Source of the DNA: Planctomycetota bacterium
Lineage (GTDB): Bacteria; Planctomycetota; UBA8108; UBA1146
Assembly: GCA_013911165.1 (NCBI GenBank)
Contig: JACETR010000007.1
Location: 1,144 to 65,143, forward strand
Length of the DNA stretch: 64,000 nt
Direction: 5' to 3'
Below are positions 8,517-51,205 of the stretch, piece by piece. Under the pieces are notes generated by a model. It was not told where the DNA came from, made no database searches, and saw only the letters and a program-made list of their open reading frames with translations. Made by a program: the position numbers and the translations under genes. Each line of letters starts with the position of its first letter. Position 1 is the stretch's first letter.

Positions 8517-8945
8517 ATGCCTTACCCCGAAGAACTGGTTGCGCCCATGCGCAAGGAACTGACCGATCATGGAGTCACCGAACTGAAATCTGCTACTGAG
8601 GTAGAGGATTTCCTCGGCTCTGACGATACCTCACTGGTCATCATCAACAGCGTCTGTGGTTGTGCCGCCGGCGGTGCGCGCCCCGGTGCTGTCCTCTCGA
8701 TTCAGGCCGAAACGAAACCGGATCGCATTGGTACCGTCTTCGCCGGCCAGGATGTGGAAGCAACTCAAAAAGCCCGCGACTTCTGTTCACAGGTCCCCCC
8801 CAGCAGCCCATCGATGGCCCTCTTCAAGGGCTCGGAGCTGGTCTGGTTCCTGCCACGTCACATGATCGAGGGCCGTGACCCGCAGAGCATCGCTTTCGAT
8901 CTGGTCCAGGCTTACGAAGAGCACTGCTCAAGCAAGGCCAACTGA
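8517..8945 (+). CDS. Bacilliredoxin BrxA/BrxB family protein (DUF1094/YphP-YqiW)
   Basis: MPYPEELVAPMRKELT ... INSVCGCAAGGARPGA carries the family CGC redox motif. The length of 142 aa is as expected. Confidence 0.85.
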   Translation: MPYPEELVAPMRKELTDHGVTELKSATEVEDFLGSDDTSLVIINSVCGCAAGGARPGAVLSIQAETKPDRIGTVFAGQDVEATQKARDFCSQVPPSSPSMALFKGSELVWFLPRHMIEGRDPQSIAFDLVQAYEEHCSSKAN

Positions 8946-8948
8946 ACC

Positions 8949-9248
8949 TTGGGTACGTTTCATGATCACATGGGCGAACTCCACGGAATCACCGTGGTGG
9001 TCCGCCAAAAAGATGGAAACACCTGGATCGGCCGCTGTCACAGTGAGGATGCCATCGAGGTGATCCTTCACGATGCCGACCAGCATGTGGTCAGTGAAAG
9101 TGACGAGAATCCCGTCGATTGGCTCTCCAGAGCCCGACAGATGGGACACTGGCCCAGAGTTTCGACCATTCGTATTCCCCGTGAAACGGTGAGCACCCTG
9201 GTCCGACTTTCTGACGTCAATCAAAAAGGGGAGTTGCCAGAGTCCTGA
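8949..9248 (+). CDS. Hypothetical small protein
   Basis: The ORF is listed with a TTG start, and an in-frame ATG at 8970 is an alternative. I recognise no family. The gene ends inside a strong terminator hairpin. Confidence 0.45.
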   Translation: MGTFHDHMGELHGITVVVRQKDGNTWIGRCHSEDAIEVILHDADQHVVSESDENPVDWLSRARQMGHWPRVSTIRIPRETVSTLVRLSDVNQKGELPES

Positions 9249-9274
9249 CTCTGACAACTCCCCATTCTTTTTTT
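9228..9274 (+). terminator. Rho-independent terminator, probably bidirectional
   Basis: ggggagttgccagag (9228-9242) pairs with ctctgacaactcccc (9249-9263) over 15 bp with 1 mismatch and the loop tcctga. It is followed by attcttttttt. On the other strand the hairpin is followed by ctttttga. It sits between convergent genes. Confidence 0.8.
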
Positions 9275-11746: not shown

Positions 11747-12682
11747 TTATCCGAGGATTTCCTCTCCCAGCGCACTGGCGAGAATGGCAACGCCCACTTC
11801 TGCGGTTTTGTTGCCGTCGTCGAGCACGGGATTGACCTCTACCAGTTCAAGGGAACCAACCTTGCCAGTCTCGGCGATCATTTCCATCGCCAGGTGAGCC
11901 TCCCGGTAGGTGAAGCCCCCCTCCAACGCGGTTCCGGTACCCGGTGCAAATCGGGGATCGATGACGTCGATATCAAAACTCACATGAAGGTGATCGCAGT
12001 CGGCAAGAGCATGGGCGATCGCTTCCTCCAGTACCACGGGCAAGCCCCTGCGGTCGACGTCTTCCATCGTGTAGGCACGAATGTTGTTTTCGCGGATATT
12101 TCGACGTTCCCCCGGATCCAGATCACGGAGCCCAACCTGAACGATGCGGTGGGGTTCCAATTTCGTTCCGGCATAACCCACCTCGGTCAACTCACGTGGC
12201 CCATTTCCAAGGAGACAGGCGAGCGACATGCCGTGAATATTCCCTGTAGGCGAAGTGTCCGGAGTGTTCAGGTCAGCATGAGCATCGAGCCAGAGAACAC
12301 CGATTTTTGGAATCGAACCAGGGTTTTGACTGTGGTAATGACTCGCGACACCACTGATGGTTCCCACAGCCACGGAGTGATCCCCTCCCAAGACCAGCGG
12401 TAATCGACCACTGTCCAGTGCCCCCTTCACGCGATCACTCAGTTGACCGCATGTCTGGGAAATCGTCTCAAGGTAACGGGCTTTGGGATCTCCCGGCTTT
12501 TCCAGCTCAGGAATGGGAACCGCAATATCCCCTCCGTCCATCACATTCAGCTCAAGTCGCTCCAATGCCTTGGTCAGTCCAGCGATTCGCAAGGCCGTCG
12601 GGCCCATGGCGACCCCTCTTTGCCCCGCTCCGTGGTCCAAAGGTACGCCGATCAATTCAACAGGCTGATCTTTCGACTTCAT
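11747..12682 (-). CDS. rocF: Arginase (ureohydrolase family)
   Basis: GGDHSVAVGT, WLDAHADLNTP, GNIHGMSLA, SFDIDVIDP and LVEVNP are the Mn-binding and arginase signature blocks. Confidence 0.9.
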   Translation of the reverse strand: MKSKDQPVELIGVPLDHGAGQRGVAMGPTALRIAGLTKALERLELNVMDGGDIAVPIPELEKPGDPKARYLETISQTCGQLSDRVKGALDSGRLPLVLGGDHSVAVGTISGVASHYHSQNPGSIPKIGVLWLDAHADLNTPDTSPTGNIHGMSLACLLGNGPRELTEVGYAGTKLEPHRIVQVGLRDLDPGERRNIRENNIRAYTMEDVDRRGLPVVLEEAIAHALADCDHLHVSFDIDVIDPRFAPGTGTALEGGFTYREAHLAMEMIAETGKVGSLELVEVNPVLDDGNKTAEVGVAILASALGEEILG

Positions 12683-13731
12683 GGCTGACTCACTTCCAGT
12701 TCTTCTTTCAGGGCTGCGAGTTTGGAACTCATGAGATTGATCCGGGGTTTGAGATCAGCACGGGATCCATAGGCCCTGCGGTAGGTCGTCAAGGCTGTTT
12801 CAGCGGCGGTCAGATCCTTTGCGGTGATCGCTCCATCGAAAACCAGGCGCCAGTAATCGGAAAAAATGTTGACTCTGGCATCATTGAGACGGGTCCCGGC
12901 CCGATACAGTTCGAGCATCTCCCGGGAAGTATCCAGGTACAACTTTCCGCGTCCGACCTTATCCTCGGAATCCAGAGCCCTGACTTTGCGGACATATTCC
13001 TGCAAAAGGCGGTTCACCGGCTGGTAGGCATTCCAGCGCTCGAAACGGGCCAACAATTTTTTGTCGACTCCTTCAGTTTTGGCCGCCTGATCCAGTTCCT
13101 TTTCCGTGGATTTGCGTAGATCCATTATCGATTCCAGCAGCAATAGGCTCGCCTTGGCTGCGGCCTGATCTGCGGAACCTTCTTCACTGTTTTTGACCCA
13201 GGATCTCGCTTTGACCAACTCGGAGGCGACTTCCACCGCACCACGGACTCTGTTTTCTACGTTCGGTCGGAAAGCCCCCGCTGTGTCATTCCGCAAGATT
13301 ACCTGACCGTCGGCGTCCATCACCACCGTGGTCGGGAAGGATCTCGCTCCGATTTCTCTCAGCAGATCCTGATCAGGTTTGTCCTGAAGTCGAGCACTGA
13401 TATTGACGTAGGGCACAAAATCCTTGCCGGCCATTTCCTTCCACCAATCGGACTGGAGAGGACCCCTCTCCAAAGCGGTGCAAGGCGGTCATGGAGCATA
13501 GGATCGGGTGAAGTAGGCCACGATGGGCAAATTGTCCCTGCGCGCTCTTTCCACTGCAGAGTCAAGGGAGCGTTCCCATTTGACCGCCTTGAGAAAGGAG
13601 GACTCCTGCTTCTTTTTCCAGCGGCGCTCCAATTCTTCCGGCGATTGGGCTCCCAGATCACTGGAGATCAGGAAGCTTGCCGGGAGCAGGGCCAGCAGTG
13701 CGATCAATATCCGCAGACGTGAACGGGTCAT
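12679..13731 (-). CDS. Candidate selenoprotein: secreted thioredoxin-fold protein with a U-P-P-C motif and a helical C-terminal domain (350 aa, Sec at residue 81)
   Basis: The listed ORFs 13489-13731 and 12679-13473 are in the same frame, separated only by TGA (13491-13489) and 5 sense codons: ...IVAYFTRSYAP-TGA-PPCTALERGPLQSDWW... The TGA occupies the first Cys position of a thioredoxin CxxC. There is a signal peptide, MTRSRLRILIALLALLPASFL. The stop overlaps the arginase ATG (ATGA). Confidence 0.65.
13454..13472 (-). promoter_or_regulatory. SECIS-like hairpin downstream of the in-frame UGA
   Basis: On the minus strand, uggagagg-ggu-ccucucca forms a perfect 8-bp stem with loop GGU. It starts 16 nt after the UGA and lies within the coding sequence. 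Confidence 0.5.
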
Positions 13732-14470: not shown

Positions 14471-16309
14471 TTGTCCCCGACCAAAAGCGCAAAGAAAAAG
14501 AGCGCGAAGAAAAGCACCAAAAAAACGACAAAAAAGGCAGCCAAAAAAGTCGCCAAAAAGAAGGTCACGAAAAAAGCGGCTAAAAAACGATCTTCCGGAG
14601 GAAAAACCGGATCCCGATCGAAACCGGAGCAGGCGGATCTTTTCAGTCAAAGCCCCAAGGGCAAAGCCGCCAAGAGCTCTGCCCCCCGATCCAAAAAGAA
14701 GACCAAAAAATCTCGTGAGACATCTGGCGAAGAGGTCGCCTCAGCCAACAAGGCTGAGCAGCTGGCGGCCAAGCAAAAGGACATCTCCGTCAGTGAGTTT
14801 TTTGCCAAGAATCGCCACCTACTGGGTTTTGACAGTCCGGCCCGAGCTCTCCTGACCACCGTCAGGGAAGCGGTCGACAACTCTCTGGATGCCTGTGAAG
14901 AAGCAGAATACCTGCCGACGATTGTCGTCGAAGTCACGGCTGCCTCCGAGGAGCAGCACACCATTCTTGTCCGGGATAATGGGCCTGGCATCGTTCCCGC
15001 GCAGTTACCCAAGATTTTTGGTCGTCTGCTATATGGATCGAAGTTCCATGCCCGCAAGCAGACACGGGGACAACAGGGAATCGGAATCAGTGCTGCAGGC
15101 ATGTATGGAAACTTGACCACCGGCAAACCGATGGTGGTCACCAGCAGAACCTCCAGAAGAAAACCTGCCACTCAGGTCACCCTTGCCATCGACATGGCCA
15201 AAAACCAACCCGTGGTCAAAAAAGAGCGGGAAGTGGAAGTCGACTGGGCCCATGGAACCGAAATCCATATCGAGTTGGAAGGGACCTACAAAAAAGGCAA
15301 GCACTCCATCGACGCTTTCCTGGAACAGGTCTCCCTGGCCAACCCCCATGTTGAAATCCACTATAAAAACCCTGTAGATAAAGAGCCCATTATTTGGGAA
15401 CGGGTGACGAAGAAACTTCCGGAAGCCCCCATGGAAATCCTGCCTCATCCGCATGGAGTGGAGCTGGGAATCCTCATGCAAATGATGAAGGACACCTCTT
15501 CCAGAACCGTCAGCGGATTCCTGTGCAGCGAGTTTTGTCGAATGACCCCAAATGTGGTGAAAAAGGTCAGTGAGCAAAGCGAAGAATTGGGCAAGTACAT
15601 CGACACCGATCGTCACCCCCGCAGGCTGAGCAGTGCCGACGTCAAGATTCTTCACAAGTCCATCGAACAAACCAAGATGATGGCACCGCCAACCAACTGC
15701 CTCTCTCCCATCGGTGAAGATTTGATGTCGAAAACCCTTAGGCGCAACTTTGACCCCGAACTGGTCCTGACAGTCACCCGTCAACCTGCCGTCTATCGCG
15801 GCAATCCCTTTCAGGTAGAGGCGGGGATCGCTTATGGCGGAGAACTTCCCGGCGACGAGCTCGCCAGTATTTTCCGCTTTGCCAATCGGGTTCCCCTGCA
15901 ATACGAACAGGGCGCATGTGCCATCACGCAATCGATCATTTCGACCCCGTGGAAAAACTACGAAGTTCAACAGGCCCGGGGGGCATTGCCAACGGGTCCG
16001 TTGGCGATCCTGGTTCACATTGCGAGTGTGTGGGTTCCATTCACCTCGGAAAGCAAAAAAGCGGTCGCCGGATACGACGAGATCCTCAAGGAGATGCGCC
16101 TCGCCATCATGGAGGCGGGTCGGAAATTGGCGATCCACCTGCGCAAGAAACGTCGACTCGCGGATGCAGAGCGCAAGAAAGATTACATCAAGAAGTACAT
16201 TCCCCAGATCGGCATCGCCCTCCAGGACATTCTGGATTTGAGCGACAAACAGAGAACCGGAGCAGAGTCCAAACTGGCCGATGTTCTCGAAAAAAGCCGG
16301 AAGATGTAA
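14471..16309 (+). CDS. top6B: DNA topoisomerase VI subunit B with Lys-rich N-terminal extension
   Basis: GHKL/Bergerat motifs are [20 protein letters not shown] and [11 protein letters not shown]. The transducer region is conserved. The TTG start at 14471 lies 4 nt after gaggagg (14460-14466). Residues 1 to about 93 are KKxxKK-type low complexity. Confidence 0.9.
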
Positions 16310-16319
16310 GGGAGACTGA

Positions 16320-17471
16320 ATGACGAAGAAAATCACCCGGGCTTACTTGGACAAGGTCCGCCGGGAAAACGCCAAAAAAGACAAGAAGACCATTTCCAGC
16401 ATCGAGAATGCTGCAGATGACATTTACAAAAAGATTCAGCGCAGGGGGAAACCCTTGATGCGTTTCCCTGTTCGCAGTCTCAGCAACGTCTCCTACGACA
16501 AGCGCAAGGGTTACCTCGAGATTGGCCGCGCCCGCAAGGAGCGCACCCTGACCGTCAACACCGTCAAGGGGTTCGCACAAACACTGCGCATGATGGGTCT
16601 TTCCCGGGAACTGGTGATCAACAACGATTTTGCTACCAAGCGAGACGTTTATTACCAATCCAAAAACTGGGAAGAAGCCAAGTTTGAGGACCAAACCGAA
16701 TCGGACACGGTCATGGATGACATCGAGGCGCTCTTCTCAGTCGACGATGTCAGTCGTGAGCAATTGCGCTTTGTTCCCGATGAACATGGCGGAGCTGTGG
16801 CTGGGGATCTGGTCGTCCTCGACCCCGACCTGGAATCCGGAGAGATTGAACGCATTGACTGCACACGCTTCGGCAGTGGTGCCTATTCCATCCCCACTTC
16901 CGTCGAGCATTTGAGTTTTGAAACCGGCGCCAAATTCATCCTCGCCATCGAAACCGGAGGTGTTTTCCAAAGACTGCAAAGTCACAAGTTCTGGAAAACC
17001 TCCAATTGCATTCTCGTCAATATGGCGGGAGTCCCCACCCGCTCGACCCGCCGATTCATTCGCCGACTCAGCGAACAAGCCAAAATTCCGGTTTACGCCT
17101 TCGTCGATTGCGATCCCTACGGGATCTCCAATATTTATCGAACCTTGAAGGTCGGATCGGGTAACGCCGCGCACATTAATCGCTTCTTCTGTGTTCCCAA
17201 TGCCACCTATCTGGGAGTAACCCCTCAGGACATCATCGATTACGAACTTCCAACCCACCCCTTGAAGGATGTCGATATCAAGCGTGCCAAGGACGCCCTC
17301 AAGAATGACCCCTTCTTCAAGAGCAAGAAGCAGTGGAAATCGGCGATTGAGCAATTGTTGTCGATGGGTGTCCGTGCGGAACAACAGGCTTTGGCGATGT
17401 GGGGCCTGAACTACGTCATTGAAGAATATTTGCCCCAAAAGCTGAAAAATCCGGGTAAATTCCTTCCTTGA
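16320..17471 (+). CDS. top6A: DNA topoisomerase VI subunit A (Spo11 family)
   Basis: KRDVYYQS is the catalytic Tyr motif. Toprim motifs are ILAIETGGVFQRL and FVDCDPYGISI. The gene starts 10 nt after top6B. Confidence 0.9.
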   Translation: MTKKITRAYLDKVRRENAKKDKKTISSIENAADDIYKKIQRRGKPLMRFPVRSLSNVSYDKRKGYLEIGRARKERTLTVNTVKGFAQTLRMMGLSRELVINNDFATKRDVYYQSKNWEEAKFEDQTESDTVMDDIEALFSVDDVSREQLRFVPDEHGGAVAGDLVVLDPDLESGEIERIDCTRFGSGAYSIPTSVEHLSFETGAKFILAIETGGVFQRLQSHKFWKTSNCILVNMAGVPTRSTRRFIRRLSEQAKIPVYAFVDCDPYGISNIYRTLKVGSGNAAHINRFFCVPNATYLGVTPQDIIDYELPTHPLKDVDIKRAKDALKNDPFFKSKKQWKSAIEQLLSMGVRAEQQALAMWGLNYVIEEYLPQKLKNPGKFLP

Positions 17472-37905: not shown

Positions 37906-39618
37906 TCAGAAACTGACCTGAAGCAATCCGGAACAGGAGGGACTTTCTACCCAATGAGTCACCGCAGTGGGAAAGACAACCCGATCGCCTCGCAGAACCT
38001 GATGCAAATCGACGGTAGTCTGGTCCCCTTCACCGGCGAGGAGCAATTCAGAGAGAGCTCCCCGTGCATGGGCCAAAGGTACTTTTCGACTGTAGAGGGA
38101 GAGACAAGAGACGGTCGTCACGATCTCCGGCTGAATCGGATCATCTTCCAGCAAACCCCACAGGTCGGCGAGAACCGATTCAATCGGTCGATCAAGGTAG
38201 AGTGAGTCGTCCCACTGCAGCGCCAACAACCCCGGCTCGAGCGTAAGGGCTTCATGAAACAGGGAACCGGCGAGCTGCCAGTTTTCGAGGCGAAGGTGAA
38301 CCAGTGCTTCGAGAAAACGAACCAGGCCAATATCGGACTGCTCTTGATTCGCTCGATCCAAATGCCTCAAAGAATCCTCGACGTCCCCCAATTGATAAGC
38401 ACTCCAGGCGTCGCAGATGGCAGTACGAAGAATCTCATCATCCCGAACCACTTCGATGACTTCTTCCCGGGTTTCGACAAAAACAATCGAACCACGATCC
38501 CGTGAAGATTGAAGGGTCGAGGACCAGTACACACCATGGGAATGTCCGTGCCAGTAACCATGGTGCCACCAGAAGATATGGTGCGAACTGCTGTAGGCCC
38601 ACGGCAACCACCATCCATGGCACCAATTCAGGGGATGACTCAGATACCAGGGAGAGCAGTATCCATGATGCCAGCCGTGAAAGCCGTAATCGGCGTAGAG
38701 GTGAACTCCCAATGCCAAATGAAACCCATGCAGGTATTGCGGGTGGCAAGACCAGGGCATGGAAGTGTGACCATAAACTGTATTGCTGATCGCCGTTCCA
38801 CTGGGGGAAACGGGAGCGTGTATCGCACCTGTGGGAGTGTGAACCACTCCGGACGGAGACAATCTGACTCCTGGATTTTTTGAGAGGGATCGCCCTCGGG
38901 ACGGGATCGTGGTGGCGACTCCGGAAGCCGAAGTTCTGCCCCACCTCTGAATCATCTCTGCGGTGGGCGCCAACTCTGAAGCGGGGCTCCCTGAATCATT
39001 CAGAGTAGGAACTTTCCGATCTCTCATAGCCGGCAAGGGGGCCACCGGCAACGCTCTTGGAACCGGAGTGGCAGTTCTTCTGCCCTGACGAATTCGGGTA
39101 CGGACTCCCGCCGGGGGCTGTCCCGAACCAGGTAAAGTCAATTCGGGCTGGGGCCGTGGCTGGAGGTCACGAATGGACCCGGGCTTCAAGGTGTTCACCG
39201 GGTTGACTGTTGAAACTCCGGGGGCCGAAGGAGCCCCTGATCCACCGGTGGAAGGGTTCCAACGGGGTTTCGGGTTTCTCACAGGAGGCGTCACTCGGGG
39301 AGTCACCCTTGGGGTGACTCGCGGTTGGAGTTGAACTCCACTTCCCGAAGGGGGTCGCACTTGAGGGCGTACTTGAGGTCTCACCTGAGGTCTCACCTGA
39401 GGTCGCACCTGAGGTCTCACCTGGGGCCTTGGAGCGGGACGGCTCTGTGGACGAACCTGAGGACGAGAGGAAGGTCTTGCCTGGGGTCGAGATGACGGAG
39501 AAATGGAGGTCCCTGTCCCTCTGGACTGGGCCTCGGCAGCCCCTGTCCCCCATCCACATGCCAGAATCATCCCTGTACACAGCAAAGTGAAACAGCGCCG
39601 GGTCAGCATTCTGTTCAT
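37906..39618 (-). CDS. Secreted repeat protein: (RPQV)n and (RVTP)n repeats, a His/Trp/Tyr-rich block and a C-terminal helical-repeat domain
   Basis: The signal peptide is MNRMLTRRCFTLLCTGMILACGWGTGAAEA. The repeat region reads RPQARPSSRPQVRPQSRPAPRPQVRPQVRPQVRPQVRPQVRPQVRP. The His/Trp block reads GFHGWHHGYCSPWYLSHPLNWCHGWWLPWAYSSSHHIFWWHHGYWHGHSHGVYW. I recognise no family. Confidence 0.6.
   Translation of the reverse strand: MNRMLTRRCFTLLCTGMILACGWGTGAAEAQSRGTGTSISPSSRPQARPSSRPQVRPQSRPAPRPQVRPQVRPQVRPQVRPQVRPQVRPPSGSGVQLQPRVTPRVTPRVTPPVRNPKPRWNPSTGGSGAPSAPGVSTVNPVNTLKPGSIRDLQPRPQPELTLPGSGQPPAGVRTRIRQGRRTATPVPRALPVAPLPAMRDRKVPTLNDSGSPASELAPTAEMIQRWGRTSASGVATTIPSRGRSLSKNPGVRLSPSGVVHTPTGAIHAPVSPSGTAISNTVYGHTSMPWSCHPQYLHGFHLALGVHLYADYGFHGWHHGYCSPWYLSHPLNWCHGWWLPWAYSSSHHIFWWHHGYWHGHSHGVYWSSTLQSSRDRGSIVFVETREEVIEVVRDDEILRTAICDAWSAYQLGDVEDSLRHLDRANQEQSDIGLVRFLEALVHLRLENWQLAGSLFHEALTLEPGLLALQWDDSLYLDRPIESVLADLWGLLEDDPIQPEIVTTVSCLSLYSRKVPLAHARGALSELLLAGEGDQTTVDLHQVLRGDRVVFPTAVTHWVESPSCSGLLQVSF
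39354..39425 (-). repeat. Six tandem 12-nt units (plus-strand gtctcacctgag and variants) encoding the RPQV repeats
   Basis: Read directly from the DNA. Degenerate copies continue on both sides. Confidence 0.9.
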
Positions 39619-49699: not shown

Positions 49700-49724
49700 A
49701 TCACGGGTTTATCGGACCCGTGAT
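49700..49724 (-). other. Intercistronic stem-loop between the pilP-position gene and pilQ
   Basis: A perfect 9-bp stem, atcacgggt / acccgtgat, with a 7-nt loop. It overlaps the upstream stop codon. On the minus strand it is followed by ttttgctg, so it may be an attenuator or processing site. Confidence 0.4.
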
Positions 49725-51205
49725 CAAAATCTTCCAAATCGACGCTCGATCATCTCGCCCTCAAAGAGGAACACGAGACGGTCCCGGTGAACCTCCTGAA
49801 GGACCGCACCCTGAATCTCTCCCCCCAAGGCCACCCATTCGCCATCGACGATGGCGTGGGATCCCTCAGCGGAAATGGCAACTCCATCAATCTCGATGGA
49901 ACGGGAAAGAAACTTACGAATCACATCACTGCGATCACGGAGTTGAGTGGCGGCCATGCTGACGAGGGTTGAAGTGGTCGCATAGGTCTCACCGGATTCC
50001 TCGATATCACGGGCAAATCGTTGAATCTCGGAGTGCAAACGGTTCACAGTTTCAAAATCATTGTTGGCAAAGGCACGTTTCATACGATCCAGGCGTGCAC
50101 GGCTCTCCTCGTAGAGATGACGAACCCGAATCTCTGCCACACCGTCCTCAAGATCCTGAAGACGTTCACCGATCGCTTTCAGTTCTGCAGCCAGCTCGGG
50201 CTGGTCAAAACGCTTCGATTCCTCAGTGATCTCCATGATCACTTTGTAGGCATCGGCAGCCGTACCATGCTCGCCATTCCTGACGGAGAACTCGACCCTG
50301 GAAATCGCTTCACGGGCTTCATTCAGCATCTTTCTTTGATCTTCGACAGCGAGGTAACTGAAATTACTTCCAGCCTCCGCAACCCCGGATCCTTTCCAGG
50401 GTGCAGTGAACGGATCTCTGTGAATTCCATCATTCAGGAGATAACGCTCCAGTTTGAGTGCAGAGCGAACAAATCGGGTATCCGAGGTGAAACGCCCAAG
50501 AGCAGGAAACTGACCGACAGCTCGAGCGATATTCATTCCTCGCGAAGCCGCTTCATCCAGAAAACGATATACCTCAGCATCCTTTCCGGATGCCGCAGAA
50601 GTTTCGGCGAGAAGCAGGTAGGCAATCGCTTCCTGACCACCGTAATCGATGTACTCCTGAAATTTGGCTGCAGCCTCCTCGAGGTGACCGTGACCGTTCT
50701 CGATGGTATTCAGGCGTCGATGCACCAAACCCAGAGTCAGGTGATAATCCGCATTGTAAGGACGCAAACTCACCAGCTCTGAAAGGCCTTCAAAAGCTCT
50801 TTTCCACTGTCCCCGACGAAGTTGCTCTTCACATGCCTTGCTCAATTCGGCGATGCGACGATCTTCTTCAACCTTGACGGTTTCTGCTGCCTGTTCCTCG
50901 ACCGGGCCGGTAGCAGGCAAGACCTCCGTATCCGGGCGCTGTAACAAGGCCACTTCAGAGCTTTCGTCTGAGCTCCCACTCGCTGCACTGAGAGTTTCGG
51001 CAGAATCCAGAGAGTCAGTCGATTCCAAAACAGAATCCGACTCTGAATTGACGACAGAATTCTTTTCTGCCGCTGCCGTCATTTTATTGGCAGAATCAAC
51101 AACGGAGTCGGATCCGATGAAACTGCTCACCAGATAAAGGACCACTACCGCGCAAAAGCCGGCAACCAAAGTCCATTTCTTTTCCTTGATTTGATCCAAC
51201 ATCAC
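49724..51205 (-). CDS. PilP-position protein: N-terminal anchor, acidic/Ser-rich linker, TPR-like region and PilP-like C-terminal beta domain
   Basis: It sits between pilO and pilQ. The C-terminus (VAISAEGSHAIVDGEWVALGGEIQGAVLQEVHRDRLVFLFEGEMIERRF) looks like the PilP/GspC HR fold. At 493 aa it is much longer than PilP. Confidence 0.5.
   Translation of the reverse strand: MMLDQIKEKKWTLVAGFCAVVVLYLVSSFIGSDSVVDSANKMTAAAEKNSVVNSESDSVLESTDSLDSAETLSAASGSSDESSEVALLQRPDTEVLPATGPVEEQAAETVKVEEDRRIAELSKACEEQLRRGQWKRAFEGLSELVSLRPYNADYHLTLGLVHRRLNTIENGHGHLEEAAAKFQEYIDYGGQEAIAYLLLAETSAASGKDAEVYRFLDEAASRGMNIARAVGQFPALGRFTSDTRFVRSALKLERYLLNDGIHRDPFTAPWKGSGVAEAGSNFSYLAVEDQRKMLNEAREAISRVEFSVRNGEHGTAADAYKVIMEITEESKRFDQPELAAELKAIGERLQDLEDGVAEIRVRHLYEESRARLDRMKRAFANNDFETVNRLHSEIQRFARDIEESGETYATTSTLVSMAATQLRDRSDVIRKFLSRSIEIDGVAISAEGSHAIVDGEWVALGGEIQGAVLQEVHRDRLVFLFEGEMIERRFGRF

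Follow-up and report, generated by a model that had tools for sequence, protein, structure and literature searches.

Bacterial selenoproteins with a thioredoxin fold and a UxxC active site, in which U stands for selenocysteine (Sec), are long established, and for that reason what is described below is of a known kind in its mechanism, its Sec/Cys pairing and its fold. The locus examined here resembles such proteins on several counts: Sec would replace the N-terminal Cys of a CxxC motif in a DsbD-gamma-type fold, a hairpin resembling a selenocysteine insertion sequence (SECIS) lies inside the coding region just downstream of the recoded codon, homologs with Cys exist, and the sequences come from marine metagenomes. 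The stretch of DNA analyzed (the window) comprises 64,000 nucleotides from a Planctomycetota bacterium (GenBank assembly GCA_013911165.1, contig JACETR010000007.1, positions 1,144 to 65,143 of the forward strand). We conclude, with a probability of roughly 0.9, that the interval 13731-12679 on the minus strand of this window is one gene, encoding an exported thioredoxin-like selenoprotein, which public annotation has split in two.

The minus strand from 13731 to 12679 reads as a single frame of 350 codons, interrupted only by a TGA at 13491-13489. The translation runs MTRSRLRILIALLALLPASFLISSDLGAQ...LPIVAYFTRSYAP-*-PPCTALERGPLQSDWWKEMAGKDF..., this being the sole internal stop, and the immediate context of the codon is ...AYFTRSYAP-TGA-PPCTALERGPLQ..., which places the TGA at the head of a U-P-P-C redox motif. 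Two open reading frames (ORFs), one upstream at 13731-13489 (80 amino acids, aa) and one downstream at 13473-12679 (264 aa), thus lie in the same frame on either side of the motif. A preliminary description of this DNA had singled out the in-frame UGA and this pair of ORFs, and both are present where it placed them.

Orthologous DNA was fetched from metagenome contigs, together with 21 loci from species-representative genomes, all of them marine Planctomycetota/Planctomycetia metagenome-assembled genomes (MAGs). The codon for residue 81 is TGA in 30 of the 30 orthologous loci, which derive from marine Planctomycetota MAGs and metagenome contigs and share 38-98% identity in their C-terminal regions; between the window and JAAXJX010000011, identity is about 98%. 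The peptide around the TGA is kept on both sides, as LPIVAYFTRSY[AS]P-U-PPCxxLE[GR]GPLQxxWW, and the codons for Arg, Ser, Tyr, Ala, Pro and Cys in its vicinity vary synonymously among 23 distinct 105-nt segments, so that this stretch must be translated and under purifying selection. Independent termination of homologs at this position, which the preliminary description had named as a refutation, is not what is seen: the TGA persists in every ortholog, and the coding sequence is conserved before and after it. One conserved reading frame runs across the UGA.

With the fused protein as query (C in place of U), a search returned 12 orthologs, every one of them annotated as a C-terminal fragment, 232-261 aa long and mostly 251 aa, and in addition a 311-aa protein, P0013, that reads FAYFTRSYAP-C-PPC-SALEAGPL. 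Seeding a search with P0013 yielded 15 further homologs of the Cys form. These proteins, P0013 to P0028, are single polypeptides of 310-347 aa, each with a signal peptide, the motif YFTRSYxxCxxC (YFTRSYAP-C-xx-C) and the same helical C-terminal region, which bears out the prediction that homologs would be single chains with a Cys aligned to residue 81. The active-site position carries a Cys/Sec pair.

The protein fold crosses the TGA as well. Pfam model PF13899 (Thioredoxin_7) matches the fused protein over residues 52-140, the full length of the profile being covered (positions 2-83), with an E-value of 1.4e-5; homologs of the Cys form carry precomputed PF13899 matches, and all homologs have a comparable hydrophobic N-terminus. 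The invariant Pro of the alignment corresponds to P133 of the window protein, within the downstream ORF. AlphaFold2 (AF2) models were made of P0013 and of the fragment that follows the UGA in the window. For P0013, with a predicted local distance difference test (pLDDT) score of 92 and a predicted template modeling (pTM) score of 0.82, the model shows a beta-strand at 67-73, followed by CPPC and then a helix at 79-86. Modeled alone, the post-UGA fragment reaches a pLDDT of 48-67 in its thioredoxin part and of 86-98 over a domain of eight helices. Because the PF13899 match spans the TGA, with the first beta-strand upstream and the invariant cis-Pro downstream, and because the fragment by itself models poorly, the thioredoxin fold needs both ORFs. 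The view that a thioredoxin fold is split at its CxxC motif, put forward at the outset, is thereby upheld by the profile match and by the P0013 model, and the protein has a two-domain architecture, thioredoxin fold followed by helical domain. By itself, the helical domain finds no significant structural neighbor in Foldseek (best E-value 0.29, the only matches being non-significant ones to TPR and 14-3-3-like structures), and a Pfam scan of the fused protein found no TPR family at E<=1.

Exactly 16 nt past the A of the UGA stands a perfect 8-bp hairpin, UGGAGAGG-GGU-CCUCUCCA, at 13472-13454, as the preliminary description had reported; a ninth pair, U.G (13473/13453), lengthens it to 9 bp. In isolation it folds at -12.8 to -13.0 kcal/mol, a stability equaled in 2 of 200 dinucleotide shuffles. 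RNAalifold, applied to 20 distinct planctomycete sequences, independently returns the hairpin, with a GGN loop, plus an outer stem, CCGCC/GGUGG, that is additional to the structure first noticed. The outer stem is weak evidence, since the Pro-Pro codons largely dictate its bases on one side and the Trp codons dictate them on the other. The 62-nt region after the UGA folds at -26.1 kcal/mol (z = -2.6), and in most orthologs the conserved hairpin is part of the minimum-energy fold. A 2026 review of prokaryotic selenoproteomes (PMC13188914) gives a consensus for bacterial SECIS (bSECIS) elements: a loop of 3-9 nt with G in the first two loop positions, an upper stem of 4-16 bp, a UGA-to-loop distance of 16-37 nt, and a minimum free energy of -7.5 kcal/mol or lower. 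The window hairpin, with its GGU loop, 9 bp, 24 nt and -12.8 kcal/mol, agrees with all four criteria. In one ortholog (JBBWWE010000492), CGG takes the place of GGG/AGG in the stem and produces a C.U mismatch, and the hairpin is weaker at -9.9 kcal/mol; this is also the only ortholog whose gene ends in TAG.

The codons that write the stem are frozen to a degree that the amino acid sequence does not demand. The stem Glu codon is GAG in 21 of 21 orthologs, against a family background of 50%, and the stem Gly codon is GGG in 15 of 15, against 27%. Other stem codons are likewise fixed in all 21: Gln as CAG, Leu as YTG, Pro as CCY and a further Leu as CTY. Arg AGG occurs in the stem only together with CCT, while all four Gly codons are in use in the loop, and the codon entropy of every stem column is the lowest or near-lowest for its amino acid class within the gene. 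A Cys-form homolog supplies a control: P0028 (locus L034) contains the same LEGGPL...WW peptide, written CTC GAA GGC GGG CCA CTC, and this spelling abolishes the hairpin. The stem-loop is conserved and is under selection at the RNA level beyond amino acid constraint. With the hairpin contained wholly within the LE(G/R)GPLQ codons, the gene offers a clear case in which a protein sequence and a SECIS element constrain each other. A covariance model built from these sequences was set aside because it also matches the Cys-form locus L034, at 27.9 bits; its matches are driven by primary sequence, and it does not discriminate.

Several observations weigh against the reading of this locus as an exported selenoprotein gene with a SECIS element. 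Among the 20 planctomycete sequences, classical covariation is absent, with no two-sided pair changes and with shuffle controls not exceeded, and the argument for RNA-level selection therefore rests on the frozen synonymous sites and the Cys-form control. Much of the stem is constrained also by the conserved near-palindromic peptide L-E-(G/R)-G-P-L-Q. When synonymous codons are resampled, the shift is moderate but consistent (mean z about -1.5, with p<=0.05 in 30-52% of sequences), from which it follows that part of the hairpin propensity sits in the peptide itself. The window's own minimum-energy fold (13429-13494) adopts an alternative register, at -26.1 kcal/mol versus -20.1 kcal/mol for the conserved fold. 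Over 13400-13520, no SECIS match was found in Rfam at gathering score or at E<=10, a negative whose weight depends on which bacterial SECIS models Rfam holds; two other Rfam matches in this interval, CRISPR-DR52 and ncS035, are chance matches. The proposal that the hairpin is a SECIS element thus gains from its agreement with the published consensus and is left without an Rfam family. We give the Rfam negative little weight because many putative bSECIS elements do not resemble one another (PMC13188914). The PF13899 score of 25.6 bits falls just below the gathering cut-off of 27, and protein function, export and redox direction are read from homology. No selA, selB or selD was found in the 64-kb window (by Pfam annotation of its roughly 50 ORFs) or in the fetched loci, nor did ARAGORN find a tRNA for Sec in the window or in any fetched locus. 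Other Planctomycetes have complete selA/B/C/D sets, along with candidate thioredoxin-like selenoproteins (PMC4807772).

Three other explanations were considered. In the first, the UGA is read through as another residue, by a near-cognate Trp or Cys tRNA or through local reassignment, and the hairpin merely stimulates read-through. The identity of the inserted residue is not something that sequence data by themselves can establish, which is what this account has in its favor. Of the 46 genes in the window with Pfam support, however, 31 end in UGA, as does this very gene in 20 of 21 orthologs, so that reassignment of the codon is excluded. The recoded position, moreover, is the catalytic Cys of a redox motif, a classic Sec/Cys pair, and GGN or GUN loops 24-25 nt from the UGA fit the SelB-dependent bSECIS consensus. 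We regard read-through with a residue other than Sec as improbable, at odds of about one in twenty.

In the second explanation the TGA is a true stop, and the locus makes two products, a secreted peptide of 80 aa and a protein of about 251-264 aa with its own start of translation. Every public gene call does split the locus in this manner, with both fragments annotated as hypothetical, and no gene of the Sec machinery was found in the window or in the fetched loci. Such an account leaves unexplained why the stretch from the TGA to the called start is conserved as protein (PPCxxLEGGPLQSxWW), and why the split should cut through the CxxC motif of one thioredoxin fold that Cys-form homologs make as a single polypeptide. 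Nor is the called start of the downstream ORF conserved: among orthologs it is ATG, GTG, or a Met at least 20 residues further downstream. Termination at the TGA is, in our judgment, somewhat less probable still than read-through as a different residue. The third explanation, a pseudogene or a Cys codon misread in sequencing or assembly (TGC or TGT to TGA), would need a single base change, but is effectively refuted by the recurrence of the TGA in 30 loci that were assembled independently (about 20 species-level genomes and many metagenomes being their source), by synonymous variation around it, by purifying selection still acting on both halves, and by the exact N-terminal fragment recurring in 310 blocks of a public assembly collection. 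Those blocks, which include Tara Oceans assemblies and contigs of up to 1.18 Mb, hold the exact 80-aa fragment, and the lineage that carries the window is on this account abundant and widely sampled.

For the selenoprotein, then, the following course of events is proposed. UGA codon 81 would be decoded as Sec when the hairpin, which begins 16 nt downstream and presents its GGU loop 24 nt from the UGA, is bound by SelB.GTP.Sec-tRNASec, whereas the gene-terminal UGA, which has no such hairpin, would end translation. Both the actual insertion of selenium at codon 81 and its dependence on SelB are what we infer from the sequence patterns. The product, by virtue of its N-terminal signal peptide, is probably exported across the cytoplasmic membrane, where it would probably serve as a thiol-disulfide oxidoreductase of the DsbH/DsbD-gamma (Thioredoxin_7) type, with reductase or isomerase as its likeliest activity. 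Within the U-P-P-C motif, nucleophilic attack would fall to Sec81 and resolution to Cys84. By analogy with YbbN/CnoX, the helical domain of about 190 residues probably acts as a module that binds substrates or partners.

The architecture, a thioredoxin fold followed by roughly 200 residues of helix, had gone unrecognized in the preliminary description; it is present as described there, but it is not rare, and belongs to a large family in which Cys and Sec forms both occur. A profile of the two forms, searched against 1.84 billion representatives, finds 511 proteins at E<=1e-30 and 1740 at E<=1e-10. Roughly a third of the top 150 representatives start exactly after the redox motif (MEGGAL.., MESGPL.., LEKGAL..); such starts are the signature of the same UGA split, and these representatives look like Sec forms. 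The motif was located in 83 full-length members of the family, and 62 of these carry CxxC. Scanning metagenomes with fragments of the truncated kind as seeds gave 57 loci, and in 51 of these (in the range L039-L093) the motif was located; TGA occupies the first Cys position in 49 of the 51, with TGC in L063 and TCG in L080, a ratio biased by a search pattern taken from truncated forms; the pattern also matches several Cys forms.

Across the divergent members the hairpin changes in sequence and register yet keeps its place. All four bSECIS criteria hold for 58 of the 69 Sec-form sequences, where loops are GGN (34) or GUN (16) and the spacing is 24-25 nt in 56; they hold for neither of the two sequences with a sense codon, L063 and L080. 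In L086 and L092 GAA...UUC stands for GAG...CUC, and pairing is kept. Tentatively, and with somewhat less than even confidence, we propose that these proteins form a widespread selenoprotein family, undescribed as such, in which an exported Thioredoxin_7 domain with the motif YFTRSYxx-U-xx-C is joined to a helical-repeat domain, and which may be a periplasmic counterpart of the CnoX-type chaperedoxins. As part of the same tentative proposal, Sec forms appear to be unusually common in it relative to Cys forms, and its hosts appear to be marine, soil and freshwater bacteria. The two-domain family and the frequency of its Sec form appear to be unrecorded; the sequences of published families were not compared, and an earlier description under a broad label is possible.

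Public databases record this one gene as a pair of hypothetical ORFs (80 and 251 aa), and the same error recurs in at least 30 orthologous loci and in many members of the family. GenBank and IMG label the fragments "hypothetical protein" (MGE4614211.1 and RTZ92865.1 are examples), and no selenoprotein model in NCBIfam (release 20) covers the family. The split annotations, in a family of more than 500 representatives, would be mended by a model built for that family and provided with a Sec exception. The selenoproteome of an abundant group of marine Planctomycetota would gain an exported two-domain thiol-disulfide oxidoreductase, with the implication that the lineage decodes Sec. Knowledge of how Sec is inserted, and of what UxxC thioredoxin folds do, is unchanged by this addition.

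Table 1. Coordinates, within the window, of the proposed selenoprotein gene, its parts and its downstream neighbor.
Feature	Coordinates	Strand	Remarks
Complete recoded coding sequence, 350 codons plus terminal TGA	12679..13731	-	ATG 13731-13729, in-frame putative Sec-UGA, stop 12681-12679; frame of orthologs uninterrupted except for the TGA
Predicted Sec-type signal peptide, residues 1-28	13648..13731	-	MTRSRLR, hydrophobic core, cleavage read as LGA|QS; predicted from sequence
Thioredoxin-like domain, residues 52-140, spanning the TGA	13312..13578	-	beta1 upstream; cis-Pro loop (P133) downstream
In-frame UGA, residue 81, putatively read as selenocysteine	13489..13491	-	Cys-form loci L010, L011 and L034 have TGC here
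Redox motif U-P-P-C	13480..13491	-	aligns to CPPC/CxxC in 62 of 83 full-length family members with motif located
Outer (lower) stem, 5' arm CCGCC, immediately after the UGA	13484..13488	-	98% of cells paired in 20 sequences
SECIS-like hairpin, 9 bp (U.G plus 8 Watson-Crick)	13453..13473	-	apical loop GGU 13464-13462; UGA-to-loop 24 nt
Outer (lower) stem, 3' arm GGUGG, within Trp-Trp codons	13441..13445	-	RNAalifold, 20 sequences
C-terminal all-helical domain, about residues 158-350 (about 190 aa)	12682..13260	-	AF2 pLDDT 86-98, eight helices; homologous to the Cys-form C-terminal domain
Arginase-family gene, downstream, conserved operon partner, outside the selenoprotein	11747..12682	-	Pfam PF00491, E 1.6e-76

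The arginase-family gene is tightly joined to the selenoprotein gene: its ATG (12682-12680) overlaps the selenoprotein stop in a 4-nt ATGA, and the overlap is kept in those planctomycete orthologous loci for which gene calls are listed. The Cys-form homolog at locus L010 adjoins an argR-argC-argB-argD-argF-argG-argH cluster. A link between the selenoprotein and arginine metabolism is possible. Genes for topoisomerase VI subunits B and A lie at 14471-17471 on the plus strand, in conserved synteny with the selenoprotein gene; the genome that encodes them is bacterial (planctomycete), and about 60 aa at the N-terminus of the B subunit form a Lys-rich tail. Elsewhere in the window, two minus-strand ORFs, 37906-39618 (570 aa) and 49724-51205 (493 aa), match no Pfam family at E<=1e-5, and the second of these sits between pilus-assembly genes (PilM/PilO-like) and a secretin gene. 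A scan for promoters and terminators returned nothing informative. Further selenoprotein genes were sought in the window through in-frame TGA scans with tblastn against orthologous loci; the results were dominated by off-frame conservation, and only the TGA at 13491 on the minus strand stood out. The region 8517-9257 (plus strand), with a Disulph_isomer gene (PF06491, CGC motif), was considered as a second selenoprotein. This gene, 8517-8945, ends in TGA at 8943-8945 and is followed by a 99-aa ORF in the same frame; the candidate was rejected, the two being ordinary adjacent genes.

Among described proteins, the closest solved relatives of the thioredoxin domain are DsbH, the periplasmic disulfide reductase of Chlamydia (PDB 2ju5), and DsbD-gamma (1uc7, 2fwe). 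A profile search of PDB sequences finds DsbH 2ju5 at an E-value of 1.3e-8, and Foldseek aligns the P0013 model to DsbH and DsbD-gamma with template modeling (TM) scores of 0.56-0.59, normalized by target length, and a root-mean-square deviation of about 3 A. Like the window protein as we read it, both are exported and have an active site of the CxxC type; unlike it, they have Cys rather than Sec and lack a helical C-terminal domain. The DsbH model NF043050 scores 24.3 bits for the window protein and 25-41.5 bits for members of the wider family, against a cut-off of 190, so that the protein is not a DsbH equivalog.

Other thioredoxin-7-related models are detected weakly: NF041383/NF041382 (VPGUxxT thioredoxin-like), NF041199 (Trx7/PDZ) and NF045694 (TsoB) score 16-33 bits against cut-offs of 275-805, and their motifs (VPGUxxT, CxxU) and partner domains differ from those of the window protein. 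In particular, the VPGUxxT family NF041383/NF041382 scores 32.6 bits, with cut-offs of 275/350, and the corresponding motif in the window is YAPUPPC, which places the protein outside that family. From the published UxxC families the window protein would differ in its fused helical domain of about 190 aa and its motif YFTRSYxx-U-xx-C, but it may be identical with one of them.

In overall architecture the nearest parallel is the chaperedoxin YbbN/CnoX of Escherichia coli (3qou), a protein of the thioredoxin-plus-TPR kind, where an N-terminal thioredoxin fold is followed, as here, by a helical-repeat domain. YbbN 3qou is the top Foldseek match to the whole P0013 model, aligned over 298 columns with an E-value of 5.4e-5, a TM-score of only 0.25 and 13% identity. 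YbbN is cytoplasmic and has an SxxC motif, whereas the window protein has a signal peptide and UxxC. The likeness to YbbN/CnoX is one of architectural analogy and probably not of membership.

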